A DNA stretch of 64,000 nt from Oscillospiraceae bacterium (GCA_015066005.1 SVPF01000002.1:36923-100922), one strand, 5' to 3'; shown: positions 6,947 through 40,663, numbered from the stretch's first letter. The notes: a model not told the origin generated them from the sequence alone. Made by a program: numbers and translations.

Positions 6947-7046
6947 ATATATTTAAAATATTATTAAAAAAATAGTGGAAAAAATTGCAAGACTGTGGTA
7001 TAATAGTTCGGCACAAAATTTGCATACTTTATGCGGAGGTATAAAA

Positions 7047-8420
7047 ATGACTTTAAAAGAAACAAAAAATTTAAGCGCTAACAGATATGAGCTTACAATT
7101 GCTATCAGCGCTGAAGAATTAGCTGAAGGTGTTAGAAAGGCATATGAAAGCAGAAAGGCTGACATTTCTATCCCCGGTTTCCGTAAGGGTAAGGTTCCCT
7201 TTGCAATGGTTGTTAAAATGTACGGTGAGGAAGCATTTTATGAAGATGCTCTCAACATCCTTTATCCCGATGCAGTAGATGCTGCTATTAAGGAATCCGG
7301 CCTTAAGGTAATTAACGATAAAATGGATACTGATATTGAATCCATCTCTAAGGAAGAGGGCGTTGTTTTAAAGGTTGCTCTTACTACTTATCCCGAAATT
7401 GAAATTGGCGAATACAAGGGCCTCAAGGCTGAAAAGGTTATCGCTAAGGTAGAAGACAGCGAGGTTGACGCGCAGGTTAATGCTATGGCTCAGCGTAATG
7501 CTCGTATGGTATCTGTAGAAGACCGTGCAGCTCAAATGGGTGACACTGCAGTTATTGACTTTGAAGGCTTTAAGGACGGCGTTGCATTTGAAGGCGGCAA
7601 GGGCGAAGGCTATTCATTAGAACTTGGCTCAGGCTCCTTTATCCCCGGCTTTGAAGAACAAATCGTAGGTAAGAACATTGGTGATGAATTTGACATCAAC
7701 GTTACCTTCCCCGAAGAATACGGCGCAGAAGACCTTGCAGGCAAGGAAGCAACCTTCAAGATTAAGCTTCACGAAATCAAGTTCCAGGAGCTCCCCGAAA
7801 TTGATGACGAATTTGCTAAGGACGTAAGCGAATTTGATACTTTGGCTGAGCTTAAGGCTGACATTAAGGAAAAGGCACTTGCCCAAAAGACCAAGATTGC
7901 TGAAGAAGAGGCCGAAAATGACCTTGTTCAGCAAATTGTTGACAGCATTAAGGGCGAAATTCCCGAAGCTATGTTTGAAAGCCGCTTACAGCAAAGCGTT
8001 GAAGAATTTGGCTACAGACTTCAAATGCAGGGCTTAGACCTTGACACCTATCTTAAGTATTCCGGCACTTCTATGGATGATTTCAAGGCTACCTTCCGTC
8101 CTCAAGCCGAAGCACAGGTTAAGTTCCGCCTTGCTCTTGAAAAGATTGTTGAGCTTGAAAACATCGAAGCCAGCGATGAAGCAATTGAAGCTGAATTCAA
8201 GAAGATGGCTGAAGCTTACAATATGGAAGTTGAAGCTGTAAAGAACGCTGTTCCCGCAAGTGAGCTTGCTAAGGATGTGGCTGTTCAGAAGGCTATCGAC
8301 TTTATTAAAGAAAATGCAGTTATTACCGAAGTAGAAGCAAAGACTGAAAAGAAGCCTGCTGCTAAGAAAAAGACTGCTGCAAAGAAAACCACCAAAAAGG
8401 CAGAGGAAGCTGCTGAATAA
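7047..8420 (+). CDS. tig: Trigger factor
   Basis: Contains 'IPGFRKGKVP' and an FKBP-type PPIase region, and has a Lys/Ala-rich tail. The ATG at 7047 follows GGAGG. The track's upstream extension from 6975 has no RBS. Confidence 0.95.
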   Translation: MTLKETKNLSANRYELTIAISAEELAEGVRKAYESRKADISIPGFRKGKVPFAMVVKMYGEEAFYEDALNILYPDAVDAAIKESGLKVINDKMDTDIESISKEEGVVLKVALTTYPEIEIGEYKGLKAEKVIAKVEDSEVDAQVNAMAQRNARMVSVEDRAAQMGDTAVIDFEGFKDGVAFEGGKGEGYSLELGSGSFIPGFEEQIVGKNIGDEFDINVTFPEEYGAEDLAGKEATFKIKLHEIKFQELPEIDDEFAKDVSEFDTLAELKADIKEKALAQKTKIAEEEAENDLVQQIVDSIKGEIPEAMFESRLQQSVEEFGYRLQMQGLDLDTYLKYSGTSMDDFKATFRPQAEAQVKFRLALEKIVELENIEASDEAIEAEFKKMAEAYNMEVEAVKNAVPASELAKDVAVQKAIDFIKENAVITEVEAKTEKKPAAKKKTAAKKTTKKAEEAAE

Positions 8421-8464
8421 TTGATTATAAACCGTTAAAAAGGTTCATAATATTTAAAGATACC

Positions 8465-8492
8465 GCCGGCACAATTCCGTGCCGGCAATTTT
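8465..8492 (+). terminator. Terminator after tig
   Basis: GCCGGCAC-aattcc-GTGCCGGC followed by AATTTT. Confidence 0.6.
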
Positions 8493-8509
8493 AAAAAGGA
8501 GTGTATTTT

Positions 8510-9091
8510 ATGAGTTTTGTACCTTATGTTATTGAACAAACAAGTAGAGGAGAGCGTTCATACGACATATTTTCCCGTCTTTTAAACGACCGCATCATTA
8601 TGCTTAACGGCGAAGTTAACGATGCATCGGCGAGCGTTGTAATTGCTCAAATGCTTTATCTTGAAGGTCAGGACCCTGATAAAGACATTAACTTTTACAT
8701 TAACAGCCCCGGTGGCTCGGTTTCAGCCGGTATGGCTATTTATGACACAATGCAGTACATTAAGTGTGATGTAAGCACTATTTGTATGGGTATGGCCGCA
8801 AGCATGGGCGCATTTCTTTTATCTGCAGGTGCAAAGGGTAAGCGCTTGGCACTTCCCAACAGCGAAATTATGATTCATCAGCCTCTCGGCGGTGCAAAGG
8901 GTCAGGCAACCGAAATTTTAATTGCCGCAAAGCATATTGAGCGCACCCGTGCAAACTTAAACCGCATTTTGTCTGAAAATACAGGCAGAAGCCTTGAAGA
9001 AATTGAACGCGATACCGAACGCGACAACTTTATGACAGCTCAGGAAGCGCTTGAGTACGGTCTTGTTGATAAAGTAATTACTAAGAGGTAA
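8510..9091 (+). CDS. clpP: ATP-dependent Clp protease proteolytic subunit
   Basis: '[18 protein letters not shown]', catalytic Ser in 'AASMGA' and His in 'MIHQP'. I prefer the ATG at 8510 (MSFVPYVIE). Confidence 0.96.
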
Positions 9092-9097
9092 TAAATA

Positions 9098-10333
9098 ATG
9101 CCAAGTAAAGTTGACAATGAAATTCGCTGTTCCTTTTGCGGCAAAACACAGGACGAGGTAACCCGTCTTGTTGAAGGCCCCGGCGTTTACATTTGTGACA
9201 ATTGTATTGATTTTTGCGCTTCTCTTTTATTTGAGGATGAAGTGTCTGCAAATAAGAGCAAAAAACAAAAAAAGGAAAAGGAATTTGTTTTACCTAAGCC
9301 GCAGGAAATTAAGGCTAAGCTTGATGAATATGTAATCGGTCAGGACGAAGCTAAGAAAACCTTGTCGGTAGCGGTTTATAACCATTATAAGCGCATCTTC
9401 AAGAAGGATGAAAGCGGTGTTGAGCTTAACAAAAGTAATGTGTTAATGCTTGGCCCCACAGGTGTTGGTAAAACCCTTTTGGCGCAAACACTTGCTAAAT
9501 GCCTTGATGTGCCGATTGCAATAACCGATGCTACAACCTTAACCGAAGCGGGTTACGTTGGTGAAGATGTTGAAAATATTCTTCTCAGGCTTATTCAAGC
9601 GGCGGACTATGATATTGAAAAGGCCGAACGCGGTATAATTTACGTTGACGAAATTGACAAAATTGCAAGAAAAAGCGAAAATGCCTCCATTACCCGTGAC
9701 GTAAGCGGTGAGGGTGTTCAGCAAGCGCTTTTGAAAATTTTAGAGGGCACAGTTTCCAATGTTCCCCCTCAGGGTGGCAGAAAGCATCCTCAGCAGGAAT
9801 TTATTCAAATTGATACCACTAACATTTTGTTCATTTGCGCAGGCGCATTTGACGGTATTGAAAAGGTTATCGAACGCCGTATAGGCGGCAGCAGTCTTGG
9901 CTTTGGGGCCGATGTTAAGTCCCCAAAAAGTAAGGAAGCTGAGGCGCTCAGCATGGTGGCGACCCACCAAGACCTTGTAAAGTTTGGTATTATACCTGAG
10001 CTTGTCGGTCGTATGCCCGTTATTACAGCTTTAAAGGGTATGGATAAACAAACCCTTATTCGCATTATGACCGAACCGAAAAATTCCATTATTAAACAGT
10101 ATGAAGCACTTTTCAAAATGGACGGTGTTGACTTAATGTTTGATAAAGCGGCGCTTAATAAAATTGCTGAGCTTACAATCGAGCGTAAAACAGGCGCACG
10201 TGGTCTTCGTTCAATTATTGAGGGTGTTTTACAGCCCCTAATGTTCGAAACCCCGTCGGACAACACCATTAAAAAAATCGTTATCACCGAAGCTACCGTG
10301 CTAGGCGGCGAAGCGGAGATTATAAGAGCATAA
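9098..10333 (+). CDS. clpX: ATP-dependent Clp protease ATP-binding subunit ClpX
   Basis: N-terminal C4 zinc finger (CSFCGK...CDNC) and Walker A 'GPTGVGKT'. It follows clpP in the expected synteny. Confidence 0.97.
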
Positions 10334-10362
10334 AAAAATCCACCCGTTTGGGTGGATTTTTT
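10333..10362. terminator. Bidirectional terminator between clpX and tcdA
   Basis: AAAAAATCCACCC-gttt-GGGTGGATTTTTT. Confidence 0.7.
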
Positions 10363-11047
10363 ATTTTATTATATCTTTAATTACTTCGCCTGCAATTATA
10401 AGTCCGGCGGCGGAGGGAACAAAGCTAATGCTCATAGGGGTGCGTGGGTCAAGGCTGTTTTTAATGGGCTCTTCCTTAGAATATAAAACCTTAAGCTTAT
10501 TTACACCACGCTTTTTAAGCTCGTACCGCATTACCTTGGCCAAGGGGCAAACGCTGGTTTTATAAATGTCGGTCACCTCAAATTTTGTTGGGTCTAATTT
10601 ATTACCTGTACCCATTGAAGCTATAAGCGGTGTACCGCTTGACTGACATTTTACCGCAAGCTCAATTTTTGCGGTAACATTATCTATTGCATCAATCACA
10701 TAATCATATTTTGAAAAGTCAAATTGGTGCGAATTTTCGGGCAAAAACAAAATGGGAAAGGTGTTAACAACGGCATTAGGGTTAATGTCCAAAATCCTTT
10801 GGCGCATTACCTCAACCTTGGGCTTTCCAACGGTGGAATGCAGCGCAATAATTTGTCGGTTAAGATTGGTAATATCAACACAGTCGCTGTCAATTAGGTC
10901 GATTTTTGTAACACCCGCCCTTATAAGTGCTTCGACAACATAGCCGCCTACACCGCCAATACCAAAAACGGCAATATGACAGTCTGCAAGCTTTTTAAGC
11001 GCATTGGTGCCTATTAAATTTTCTGTTCGTGAAAATTGTAAATTCAT
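10361..11047 (-). CDS. tcdA: tRNA threonylcarbamoyladenosine dehydratase (ThiF/E1-like)
   Basis: 'FSRTE.LIG..ALKKL....IAVFGIGGVGGY..E.L.R.GV' Rossmann N-terminus, 228 aa. Confidence 0.85.
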   Translation of the reverse strand: MNLQFSRTENLIGTNALKKLADCHIAVFGIGGVGGYVVEALIRAGVTKIDLIDSDCVDITNLNRQIIALHSTVGKPKVEVMRQRILDINPNAVVNTFPILFLPENSHQFDFSKYDYVIDAIDNVTAKIELAVKCQSSGTPLIASMGTGNKLDPTKFEVTDIYKTSVCPLAKVMRYELKKRGVNKLKVLYSKEEPIKNSLDPRTPMSISFVPSAAGLIIAGEVIKDIIK

Positions 11048-11242
11048 AGCTGTTTTCCTTTGATTTTATAGTTTTATTGTAATTGCAACCGAAAAATTTG
11101 TCAAGTCAATATGTCAAAAAATGTAAAAGACAGTTTTGATTTTGTCTCATTTTGTTGTAATAACACTTTTTTTGTTAAAACACTTGATTTAATTGACATA
11201 ATATGGTAATATATGTAAAAATGATTACTCGGAGGGAAAATT

Positions 11243-12019
11243 ATGGAAAAAAGGCTAAAAATTGTAATTGCAGATGACGTAAGCGATTTTTCAAAAAATG
11301 CGGTAAAGGTGCTTGGAAGTTACGGAATGGAGGTTGTTTTAACGCAAAAGGATGGGCTGAAGGTAATATCTACAGTAAAGGCCGAAAAGCCCGATGTTTT
11401 GCTGGCGGAAATTTTTATGCCTAACCTTGACATTTTGGGCGTACTTGACGAGCTTGGGAAAATGGATAAAAAGGATATGCCGCTTGTTATGGTGACATCA
11501 GGCTATGCTAACCCAAGGCTTGAAAAGGAAATTTTAAATGCCGGCGCCTGTTATTATTTTTTAAAACCGTTTGATGTTAATACAATGGCCGAAAGAATTA
11601 TAAAGCTTTCGGGCTGGAAGAATGAAAAAGCACCGCTTGTACTTAATAATTCTACTGTTGGCGATAACGAGCTTGAAATTATGGTTACCGAAATTATGCA
11701 CGAAATTGGTGTACCTGCACATATTAAGGGCTATCATTATTTAAGGGAATCAATTATATTATCGGTCAAAAACAGCGAAATTATAAATTCGGTTACAAAG
11801 CTATTATACCCCACAATTGCCAAAACCTATTCTACCACCGCCAGCCGTGTCGAGCGCGCAATTCGCCACGCAATTGAGGTTGCGTGGGACAGGGGTGATA
11901 TTGATGTTTTGAATTCTTATTTTGGTTATACAATTCAAAACCAACGGGGCAAGCCCACCAATTCGGAATTTATTGCGATGATAAGCGACAAGCTACGGCT
12001 TAAGCTTAAAATCGGTTAA
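11243..12019 (+). CDS. spo0A: Sporulation master regulator Spo0A (atypical: Glu at the phospho-acceptor position)
   Basis: The receiver domain is joined to the diagnostic Spo0A C-terminal domain ('[17 protein letters not shown]', '[18 protein letters not shown]', '[10 protein letters not shown]'). See the findings for E56. Confidence 0.95.
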
Positions 12020-12127: not shown

Positions 12128-13054
12128 ATGAACGGATTTTACCCCGAAGGCAAGCTTTATAACACACAGGAAAATAAACGATATATGTTATCACCTGCGG
12201 CACTTTTAGATGCGCAGATAAGGGGCGTTGTGCTTGAAGCGGCGGTGCTTATGTGTGACACCGACCATAATTTAATAGTTAATCTTGGTTGTATGCGAGG
12301 CATTATTCCACGTAATGAAGGTGCAATAGGTATTGAAAGCGGCGCCACCCGTGATATTGCGCTTATTTCCCGCGTGGGAAAGCCGGTTTGCTTTGTTATA
12401 ACCGAAATTAAAAGTGACAAAAACGGCGATTTATATGCTGTGCTGTCGCGTAAAAAGGCGCAGTTGCTTTGCAAAAGCTATATTGAAAGTGAATATAAGA
12501 CGGGGCAGGTTATAAACACGGTTGTAACCCATCTTGAATCCTTCGGCGCTTTTTGTGATATCGGCTGCGGCAATATTGCCCTTTTGCCTATAGATGCCAT
12601 TTCGGTTTCGCGTATTTCGCACCCAAAGGACCGATTTAAAGTGGGTGACAATATAAAGGCGGTAATTAAAAGCATTGCCGAAGATGGAAAAATCACTCTT
12701 TCTCATAAGGAGCTCTTGGGTACTTGGGAGGAAAACGCCCGCGAATTTTCGGCAGGGCAAACGGTTACGGGTGTTATAAGAAGTGTTGAGGATTACGGTA
12801 TTTTTGTTGAAATTACACCCAACCTTGCAGGTCTTGCCGAGCCAAAGGAAAATGTTCGTGTCGGTCAGCAGGCAAGCGTGTTTATAAAAAGCATTTTAAA
12901 GGATAAAATGAAAATTAAGCTTATAATTATTGACAGCTTTGAATCAAGCTATATTCCCGAAATTAAGTATTACAGCACCGATGAGGTAATAAACGAATGG
13001 GAATATTCGCCCAAGGATTGCCGAAAACAAATAACCACCCGATTTTGCGGATAA
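12128..13054 (+). CDS. S1 RNA-binding domain protein (two S1/OB repeats)
   Basis: Two S1-like segments are present: 'GQVINTVVTHLESFGAFCDIG..' and 'GQTVTGVIRSVEDYGIFVEI...'. Confidence 0.75.
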   Translation: MNGFYPEGKLYNTQENKRYMLSPAALLDAQIRGVVLEAAVLMCDTDHNLIVNLGCMRGIIPRNEGAIGIESGATRDIALISRVGKPVCFVITEIKSDKNGDLYAVLSRKKAQLLCKSYIESEYKTGQVINTVVTHLESFGAFCDIGCGNIALLPIDAISVSRISHPKDRFKVGDNIKAVIKSIAEDGKITLSHKELLGTWEENAREFSAGQTVTGVIRSVEDYGIFVEITPNLAGLAEPKENVRVGQQASVFIKSILKDKMKIKLIIIDSFESSYIPEIKYYSTDEVINEWEYSPKDCRKQITTRFCG

Positions 13055-39184: not shown

Positions 39185-40663
39185 ATGACAAACGCCAACA
39201 TATATAAGGATATTGCCGAAAGAACGGGCGGGGATATATATATCGGTATTGTCGGCCCTGTAAGAACGGGTAAGTCGACCTTTATTAAGCAGTTTATGGA
39301 TAAATTGGTAATTCCGAATATGGCGGGCGATTATGAACGGGAACGGGCGAACGATGAATTACCGCAGTCATCATCGGGCAGGACAATTATGACCACCGAG
39401 CCAAAATTTATTCCCGAAAAGGGCGCTGAAATCACCCTTGACGATAACGCCTTAATGAATGTAAGGCTTATTGACTGCGTGGGTTACATTGTGCCAAGCT
39501 CACTCGGTTATATCGAGGGCTCACAGCCGCGAATGGTGCGCACCCCTTGGTTTGATGAGGCCGTACCCTTTAATATGGCGGCCGAAATCGGTACACAAAA
39601 GGTTATAAACGAGCATTCAACCATCGGCCTTGTTATTACAACCGACGGCAGTATAAGTGATATACCTCGTCACGAATATGCCGAAGCGGAGGAAAGGGTT
39701 GTAAGTGAATTAAAGCAAATCAATAAGCCTTTTATTGTGCTTTTAAACTGTATGTATCCGCATTCTGCTGAAGCGCTTGCTTTGGCTGAGGAGCTTAGCG
39801 AAAAATATAACGTTCCCGTAAAGCCGATAAATTGCTTGGAGTTAACCGTTGATGACATTAAAGAAATTTTAAGCGAAATATTATTCGAATTTCCCATAAA
39901 AGAAATCGGAATTTGCTACCCTGCCTGGATAAACGGCTTAGAGCTTTCGCATCCCCTTAAAAGCGAAATTATATCATCGGTTAAGGCGGCGGCCGAAAAT
40001 ATGCTTCACATTCGTGATATTAAAAAATTCCCTGCTGCATTTAAGGGCAGTGAAAATGTTGATTATGTGAATATTGACACAATCGATTTGGGCGCGGGTA
40101 GCGCCAAGGTTATGCTTAATGTTAAGCCGTCGCTGTTTTATAACATTCTTGCCGAAAGTACGGGCTTACTGATAAATGACGAGCAGGAGCTTATGGAAAG
40201 CATAAAAGAGCTTGCGGCCATGAAAAAGGAATATTCCCGTGTTAAAGGCGCTTTGGAAGAGGTCGAGGCAACCGGCTATGGCATAATTATGCCCGATATT
40301 GAGGAGCTTGAGCTTCAAGAACCCGAAATTGTTAAGCAGGGCGGCCGTTACGGTGTACGGCTTCGCGCAAGCGCACCGTCAATTCATCTTATGAAGGCAA
40401 ACATTACAACCGAGGTAAGCCCCATTGTCGGCAGCGAAAAGCAGTCGGAGGATTTGGTAATGTATTTGCTGTCGGGCTTTGAAGAAGACCCCGTTAAAAT
40501 TTGGGATTCCAATATATTCGGCAAATCACTTCACGAGCTTGTTAATGAAGGACTTCACACCAAGCTTGCCCGCATGCCTATGGACGCAAGAATGAGGGTT
40601 CAGGAAACGGTTGAAAGGGTAATAAACGAAGGCTGTAACGGTCTTGTTTGCATATTGCTGTAA
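39185..40663 (+). CDS. spoIVA: Stage IV sporulation protein A (spore coat morphogenetic ATPase)
   Basis: 'IYKDIAERT.GDIYIGVVGPVRTGKSTFIK.FM' N-terminus, 492 aa. Confidence 0.95.
   Translation: MTNANIYKDIAERTGGDIYIGIVGPVRTGKSTFIKQFMDKLVIPNMAGDYERERANDELPQSSSGRTIMTTEPKFIPEKGAEITLDDNALMNVRLIDCVGYIVPSSLGYIEGSQPRMVRTPWFDEAVPFNMAAEIGTQKVINEHSTIGLVITTDGSISDIPRHEYAEAEERVVSELKQINKPFIVLLNCMYPHSAEALALAEELSEKYNVPVKPINCLELTVDDIKEILSEILFEFPIKEIGICYPAWINGLELSHPLKSEIISSVKAAAENMLHIRDIKKFPAAFKGSENVDYVNIDTIDLGAGSAKVMLNVKPSLFYNILAESTGLLINDEQELMESIKELAAMKKEYSRVKGALEEVEATGYGIIMPDIEELELQEPEIVKQGGRYGVRLRASAPSIHLMKANITTEVSPIVGSEKQSEDLVMYLLSGFEEDPVKIWDSNIFGKSLHELVNEGLHTKLARMPMDARMRVQETVERVINEGCNGLVCILL

Follow-up and report, generated by a model that had tools for sequence, protein, structure and literature searches.

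How does a bacterium enter sporulation when its only Spo0A carries glutamate at the position of the phospho-acceptor aspartate? This question is raised by the stretch of DNA analyzed here, 64,000 nucleotides from the metagenome-assembled genome (MAG) of an Oscillospiraceae bacterium (GCA_015066005.1, SVPF01000002.1:36923-100922), which in its full length we call the window. According to textbooks, endospore formation is triggered when Spo0A is phosphorylated on Asp56, an event on which every decision model for Bacilli and Clostridia is built, and spore formation governs how many of the gut commensals are transmitted and how they persist. To our knowledge, Spo0A has always been described as phosphorylation-dependent, and full-text literature searches, with subscription journals outside their scope, turned up no report in which a natural Spo0A lacks Asp56. 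An earlier note, made from the sequence of the window, had read codon 56 of spo0A as glutamate and proposed that Spo0A may work in a phosphorylation-independent or altered way in this organism.

The gene in question, spo0A, occupies positions 11243..12019 of the window (+ strand) and encodes a protein of 258 amino acids. In profile searches, this open reading frame scored 291.2 bits against the Spo0A equivalog TIGR02875 (cut-off 200; positions 2-261 of 262), 56.7 bits against PF00072 (Response_reg; residues 7-119) and 152.7 bits against PF08769 (Spo0A_C; residues 148-251, model positions 1-104 of 104). The protein thus consists of a receiver domain (approximately residues 1-125), a linker (approximately 126-146) and a Spo0A_C DNA-binding domain (148-251). 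A phmmer search of the PDB matched it to the DNA-binding domain structures 1lq1 and 1fc3 (E = 5e-45). An AlphaFold2 (AF2) model, for which 48 homologues served as input (mean pLDDT 81, above 90 over residues 31-70), placed the receiver strands at residues 6-10 (beta-1), 30-34, 52-56 (beta-3), 81-86 (beta-4) and 104-107 (beta-5), in the element order of a (beta/alpha)5 fold. Foldseek comparisons of the model gave matches to 1qmp, a phosphorylated Spo0A receiver, with a TMt of 0.86, and to the Spo0A DNA-binding domains 1fc3 and 1lq1, with a TMt of 0.84-0.88. The same two-domain architecture is found in the canonical Spo0A proteins of B. subtilis, G. stearothermophilus and Clostridioides difficile (1qmp, 1dz3, and 9phz; 1fc3 and 1lq1), to whose solved structures the DNA-binding domain of the window protein is ∼60-65% identical, with the helix-turn-helix and a 15-residue block invariant.

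The phospho-acceptor position is encoded by the codon GAA at 11408..11410 (+ strand). The phmmer alignment between the window protein and the B. subtilis Spo0A receiver PDVLVLDIIMPHLD (PDB 9phz) was free of gaps and set E56 opposite D56, the residue against which the earlier note had placed it by eye. Because beta-3 of the AF2 model ends with E56, this residue lies at the canonical acceptor site. The earlier note had allowed that a structure-aware alignment could place another aspartate at this site; structure-aware placement on the AF2 model revealed no other Asp at the C-terminal end of beta-3, and the assignment of Glu56 stands. The phosphorylatable aspartate at the end of beta-3, a hallmark of Spo0A, is therefore absent from the window protein. 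Consistent with the remark that one base separates this codon from one for aspartate, relatives encode Asp56 by GAT (n = 84) or GAC (n = 10) and Glu56 by GAA (n = 24) or GAG (n = 1).

The remainder of the phosphorylation pocket is shared with canonical Spo0A, as is the receiver fold itself. By alignment, the acidic metal-binding pair D11 and D12 of the motif ADD (11273..11278, + strand) is retained and, in the AF2 model, directly follows beta-1. The pocket lysine K108 of the motif FLKPF (11564..11566, + strand) is likewise retained just after beta-5, as is the conserved Thr/Ser that closes beta-4. The earlier note had named these residues correctly for the acidic pair and the lysine; within its motif VMVTSG, the Thr/Ser position is S86 (11498..11500, + strand), opposite the B. 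subtilis threonine of MLTAF, and not T85. Because the receiver fold is kept and the acceptor Asp is not, the window protein is by definition a Spo0A orthologue of the aspartate-less receiver (ALR) type.

Atypical regulators of this kind include ChxR of Chlamydia (Glu), RitR (Asn), FrzS (Ala), HP1043 and plant pseudo-response regulators such as TOC1, and glutamate is the commonest replacement of the aspartate in ALRs (26%) (PMC4395418). In most ALRs, the first acidic residue is still present along with the pocket lysine, and no cognate kinase is needed for activity (PMC4395418). The window Spo0A resembles them in having a preserved receiver fold and a replaced acceptor Asp. However, many ALRs have lost more of the pocket, which in the window protein is whole except for the Asp. 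Also unlike ALRs, the window protein is the master regulator of sporulation and has close sisters in which Asp persists, and the site has probably reverted within its lineage.

GAA and GAT differ by a single base, and the apparent Glu56 could in principle be a one-base sequencing or assembly error in this MAG, the trivial alternative named in the earlier note. This explanation is effectively refuted by the relatives. Among the 120 nearest protein clusters (90%-identity clusters from a 5.8-billion-protein collection, with sources in NCBI, ENA, JGI and Logan assemblies), the site is Glu in 61 and Asp in 59. Further, Glu56 is present in at least 21 of the 212 species genomes of the genus. Nineteen of these were found as spo0A matches to a nucleotide pattern that encodes the Glu motif and two more (G184 and G160) were recovered from their sequences; because the pattern misses their ADVLLAEVF form, 21 is a lower bound. 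One additional pattern match, in G041, lay in another gene, outside spo0A, and was discarded. The relatives are MAGs of Acutalibacteraceae (Oscillospirales) from human, ruminant and horse guts, and Spo0A identity within the Glu clade drops to ∼75%. The distribution of Glu also follows phylogeny on two gene trees (see below). The recurrence of Glu56 across species, and in dozens of metagenome assemblies made independently of one another, excludes a sequencing error, and the ortholog comparison proposed in the earlier note reveals E56 as conserved in the lineage. Within the genus, the site is never occupied by a non-acidic residue; it is either Asp or Glu.

The history of the site was followed on two trees. 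On a Spo0A tree (IQ-TREE, 99 sequences, columns 55-58 removed), a clade with support of 100/98 comprised 36 Glu and 31 Asp rows, and four state changes were required in every bootstrap tree. A single Glu clade was rejected on this tree (AU p = 0.008, for a group defined after the first tree had been seen). An independent tree of SpoIVA from 41 genomes grouped 18 Glu species in one clade (100/99), inside which lie three Asp species (G070, G109 and G120), the sister group of G184 and G160; this topology implies two changes (AU p = 0.025). The most parsimonious history on these trees would have Glu arise once, from Asp, on the basal branch of the clade, with Asp regained at least once thereafter. 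The stem of the Glu-containing clade is long, at 0.19 changes per column, and receiver changes shared at this stem include G17S, C34T, R39L, D89A and T97I. In the rest of the genus, outside this clade, Asp is strictly kept.

We next consider whether the receiver domain of the Glu forms is still under constraint. In the all-Glu clade that includes the window protein (35 clusters), the pocket residues are conserved in 30 (D11), 34 (D12), 34 (S86) and all 35 (K108) of the clusters, and hardly any variation is seen in the blocks FMPNLD, NPRLEKE and YYFLKPFD. Divergence of the receiver, as a ratio to that of the DNA-binding domain, was 1.9 and 4.0 in the two Glu clades versus 3.6 and 2.6 in two Asp groups. 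The receiver domain is therefore neither relaxed nor decaying, and relaxed selection on the receiver in Glu clades was not seen. D11 is replaced by Asn or Glu in five of the 35 Glu clusters versus none of 78 Asp clusters, which gives a weak hint of reduced catalytic constraint in the Glu forms; the hint is weak because D12 also varies in some Asp lineages.

A further observation concerns residue 84 (codon 11492-11494), which lies in beta-4, two residues before S86. Nearly all Glu56 proteins have Val at this position, whereas the nested Asp56 clade and one of the two other revertants have Ala. Within the clade, Val-Glu and Ala-Asp pairings (61 and 40) far exceed the exceptions (2 and 2). However, residue 84 co-switches in two of three reversals only, and proteins outside the clade often combine Asp with Val. 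The two positions may form a compensatory pair, which we regard as a lead only.

These data bear on the possibility that substitutions made earlier and clade-wide had rendered Spo0A phosphorylation-independent, after which Asp and Glu would be nearly equivalent and drift, so that Glu56 would be a symptom and not a cause. The at least four Asp/Glu switches on the Spo0A tree and at least two on the SpoIVA tree, all between acidic residues in this genus, are as this explanation would predict, and so are the long stem with its shared receiver changes and the covariation of position 84, which holds for the majority of switches though not for every one. Kinase content is also equal between nested Asp and Glu species (see below). 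Against this, the rest of the genus is strictly Asp. Further, because the nested Asp group forms a single, well-supported clade, the independent switching events are few. The invariance of D11 in all 78 Asp clusters and its alteration in five of 35 Glu clusters additionally hint that the two forms are under differing constraints. We consider this explanation rather unlikely.

We also examined the sporulation genes of the same genome. The window itself contains a full-length spoIVA, a hallmark of sporulation morphogenesis, at 39185..40663 (+ strand; TIGR02836, 716.9 bits, positions 1-492 of 492). SpoIVA scores ∼700 bits or more in 21 of 21 Glu56 species, as it does in 194 of all 212 genomes that represent the genus. 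Elsewhere in the genome, we found a spoIIAA-spoIIAB-sigF cluster (SpoIIAB, 183 bits against TIGR01925, cut-off 135; the SigF-like factor below cut-off), spoIIGA directly upstream of sigE (343 bits), sigG (429 bits), sigK (303 bits, with an intact pro-sequence) and SpoIID (296 bits). A SpoIIE-like protein is of full length and scores 348 bits, which is below the curated cut-off of 490.8, and a SigH-like factor scores 105 bits, also below cut-off. The sporulation context of sigma factors, spoIIA, spoIIE, spoIIG and spoIVA is therefore present in a genome whose Spo0A carries Glu56, as it is in genomes with a canonical spo0A gene, and the sporulation core is intact across the Glu56 species.

These results weigh against the view that the Glu56 protein is a hypomorph or has lost its function, i.e. 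that it is not activatable, that the clade rarely or never sporulates and that Spo0A is kept for low-threshold regulation. This view draws on the finding that an Asp-to-Glu substitution is often insufficient in studied regulators, Spo0A included (PMC4395418), and on the many Clostridia, such as Ethanoligenens harbinense, that have Spo0A and many spore genes and have nevertheless been reported as non-spore-forming (PMC3533761). In addition, the Glu clade is without cultured members, and a lineage related to Ethanoligenens carries Asn56 in our wider sample. However, SpoIVA is as well kept in the Glu species as in Asp species; the sporulation sigma factors, the SpoIIE-like protein, spoIIGA and spoIID are intact; receiver constraint is normal; and a Spo0A identity of ∼75% within the Glu clade corresponds to a long time for unused genes to persist intact. 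Loss of function is an unlikely alternative.

The wider sample comprised one genome per family from the 15 other families of the order in which a full Spo0A was readable. The site is Asp in 10 of these families and non-Asp (Glu, Asn or Ser) in five. Glu is found in G036 and G030, and Ser in G038. G033 has Asn together with a change of the acidic pair from DD to DN and of K108 to Met (C1:1073111-1073890), and G027 has two paralogues (C3:4064-4804 and C14:45156-45887), both with Asn and with K108 changed to Glu. Full-length SpoIVA is present in all five non-Asp genomes (687-762 bits), the highest score being that of G033 (762 bits). The Asn form of the Ethanoligenens-like G033 lineage, in which K108 is lost, is kept in 42 of 43 clusters, at identities as low as 72%, and one Asn-form cluster is labelled Ethanoligenens sp. 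A further Glu form is found in a sheep-gut MAG at 61% identity.

We then asked which phosphodonors are available to Spo0A in this organism. The 1.97-Mb assembly, which is 88% complete, contains a single Spo0A, as is the case with canonical spo0A, and no second, Asp-bearing paralogue was found in it. Its four other receiver-domain proteins are ordinary regulators of 227-245 amino acids. Ten HATPase_c matches were detected, of which four are HisKA histidine kinases with transmembrane or HAMP regions, on contigs C33, C6, C40 and C48, each adjoining an OmpR-type regulator. The remainder are GyrB/ParE/MutL-type proteins (judged by size and extent of match), SpoIIAB and two small proteins (184 and 141 amino acids; C9:26801-30104). 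The latter two were considered as sporulation signaling or anti-sigma proteins and set aside, as they sit in a hydrogenase/NADH-dehydrogenase-type operon; the operon also holds an open reading frame resembling a PHP domain.

The inventory of orphan sporulation kinases that had been proposed in the earlier note thus returned four kinases, all paired with their own regulators, and no orphan kinase in this genome, although the assembly, at 88% completeness, may lack one. Likewise, the genome yielded no AgrC-type kinase, no stand-alone receiver resembling Spo0F and no SPOB_a domain of the Spo0B type, and no Spo0E-like phosphatase was found in Asp or Glu species. In lacking a detectable orphan sporulation kinase, Spo0F, Spo0B and Spo0E, as well as Asp56, the organism differs from those with canonical Spo0A. 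The absence of Spo0E-like genes from both types of species leads us to reject the idea that Spo0E is limited to Asp species. HisKA counts do not support the idea of fewer kinases in Glu56 species either: Glu species have 1-5 (mean 2.8), seven nested Asp species 1-3 and the genus 1-9, and the near-complete Asp56 sisters G147 and G109 are no richer in kinases. The missing sporulation kinase is a property of the genus and not of the Glu forms; because the Asp56 sisters are equally kinase-poor, kinase loss cannot by itself explain the change from Asp to Glu. An acetate kinase is present in the genome, and acetyl phosphate is therefore available. Phosphorylation of Spo0A through cross-talk from the four paired kinases is also conceivable.

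One of these kinases lies in a region outside the window (C40:3239-15129), in which the SigH-like factor immediately precedes a paired response regulator and histidine kinase, with spoIIGA-sigE ∼7 kb beyond. The same gene order is found in two Glu56 relatives that were checked (with the spoIIGA-sigE linkage in one) and in two Asp56 relatives. The regulator and kinase of this region could be a candidate phosphodonor pair for the Asp forms.

The donor inventory also bears on the possibility that Glu56 itself is modified, as gamma-glutamyl phosphate or by methylation, and so remains a regulated switch. The retention of D11, D12, S86 and K108 around Glu56 would suit such a modification, and the possibility has been raised for aspartate-less receivers (PMC4395418). 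However, no receiver Glu is known to undergo such a signaling modification (PMC4395418), no candidate for a dedicated enzyme was found in our analysis, and the kinases are all paired with their own regulators. We consider this very unlikely.

Overall, the results favor the phosphorylation-independent or altered mode of action suggested in the earlier note as the best reading of these sequences. We infer, with a probability of roughly 0.55, that a single functional Spo0A, naturally aspartate-less and not phosphorylated in the canonical manner, drives an intact sporulation program in this clade, with Glu acting as a partial mimic and with dosage or partners setting its activity. A normal aspartyl-phosphate cannot be formed on Glu by a histidine kinase or phosphotransferase, so that Spo0A most likely acts without canonical phosphorylation. 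Instead, the longer acidic side chain of Glu56, in an otherwise intact pocket, would partly imitate the phosphorylated state, and the activity of Spo0A would be set by the amount of the protein or by its partners and not by a kinase signal. Because Glu occupies the acceptor site while the spore genes are intact, sporulation in this clade is probably not triggered by the textbook phosphorylation signal.

Comparable laboratory mutants are known. In B. subtilis, the sad67 deletion and suppressors of D56N enable Spo0A to drive sporulation genes without phosphorylation once inhibition by the receiver is relieved; these are receiver deletions or second-site changes, whereas the window receiver is full length and conserved. 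CtrA D51E, LuxO D47E and OmpR D55E are engineered Asp-to-Glu phosphomimics with partial or full constitutive activity. The same holds for NtrC D54E (PMC4395418). The substitution and its structural position are the same in these proteins as in the window Spo0A, although they are engineered mutants and the window allele is natural and fixed in its lineage. Glutamate can mimic aspartyl-phosphate but often does not do so alone, and because CheY, PhoB and Spo0A itself are cases in which the substitution was insufficient (PMC4395418), the effect of Glu in the window Spo0A cannot be assumed.

This last point counts against the preferred reading of a Glu56 protein that acts without canonical phosphorylation, as do several others. 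The Asp56 sisters are as kinase-poor as the Glu species, and the absence of an orphan kinase is thus not specific to Glu; a reversal to Asp implies that a phosphodonor is still present in the clade; a kinase may be missing from the 88%-complete assembly; and all of the genomes are MAGs of uncultured bacteria. The switching between Asp and Glu suggests either that any acidic residue suffices at the site or that an inexpensive phosphodonor, for instance acetyl phosphate, serves the Asp forms; switching would then cost little.

Taking this clade together with the families that have Glu, Asn or Ser, it is possible that, across a sizeable share of gut Oscillospirales, Spo0A phosphorylation has no control at all over entry into sporulation and that the site switches between Asp and Glu, or is lost along with the pocket lysine, while the spore program stays intact and the driver would be dosage, a metabolite or a partner. 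We put this broader proposal forward tentatively, at somewhat less than an even chance. If this proposal holds, gut Oscillospirales lineages with spore machinery and a Spo0A not phosphorylatable at this site would start sporulation by a signal that acts in another way, and the logic of sporulation initiation would differ there from the kinase/phosphorelay paradigm. The natural Asp and Glu sister alleles, with at least one reversal, also provide a ready comparative system for the role of the acceptor residue in Spo0A.

The intergenic region at 11048..11242 (+ strand) separates spo0A from a divergent tcdA-like gene (10361-11047, - strand) and contains a candidate sigma-70-like promoter, TTGACA-18-AAAAAT (11193-11222, + strand), as well as two 0A-box-like heptamers, TGACAAA and TGTCAAA, at approximately -146 and -131 from the spo0A start codon; all are consensus matches only. 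Heptamers of the form TG[TA]C[GA]AA number two upstream of spo0A, two upstream of spoIIAA (C28) and three upstream of spoIIE (C45), i.e. seven observed compared with ∼1 expected in 1.5 kb from the genome-wide rate (∼0.2 per region), and none were found upstream of spoIIGA or sigG. Because the motif was relaxed after the fact, this excess of candidate 0A boxes is only a lead.

The surroundings of the gene also differ from those of canonical spo0A, in that it does not adjoin spoIVB or recN. The divergent pair of the tcdA-like gene and spo0A is kept throughout the Glu56-containing clade, in Glu and nested Asp members alike, and was not observed around spo0A at the remaining genus loci examined. 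A tig-clpP-clpX cluster (trigger factor, 419 bits; ClpP, 337 bits; ClpX, 636 bits) is located at 6975-10333, just upstream of the tcdA-like gene. The gene downstream of spo0A (12128-13054) encodes an S1-domain protein and does not adjoin spo0A even in a relative with 86% identity. Most genomes of the genus have one copy of spo0A and three (G052, G112 and G138) have two, and in G213 three or four near-identical copies (C15:7473-8237, C2:106579-107343 and C18:2453-3217) encode proteins ∼75% identical to the window protein.
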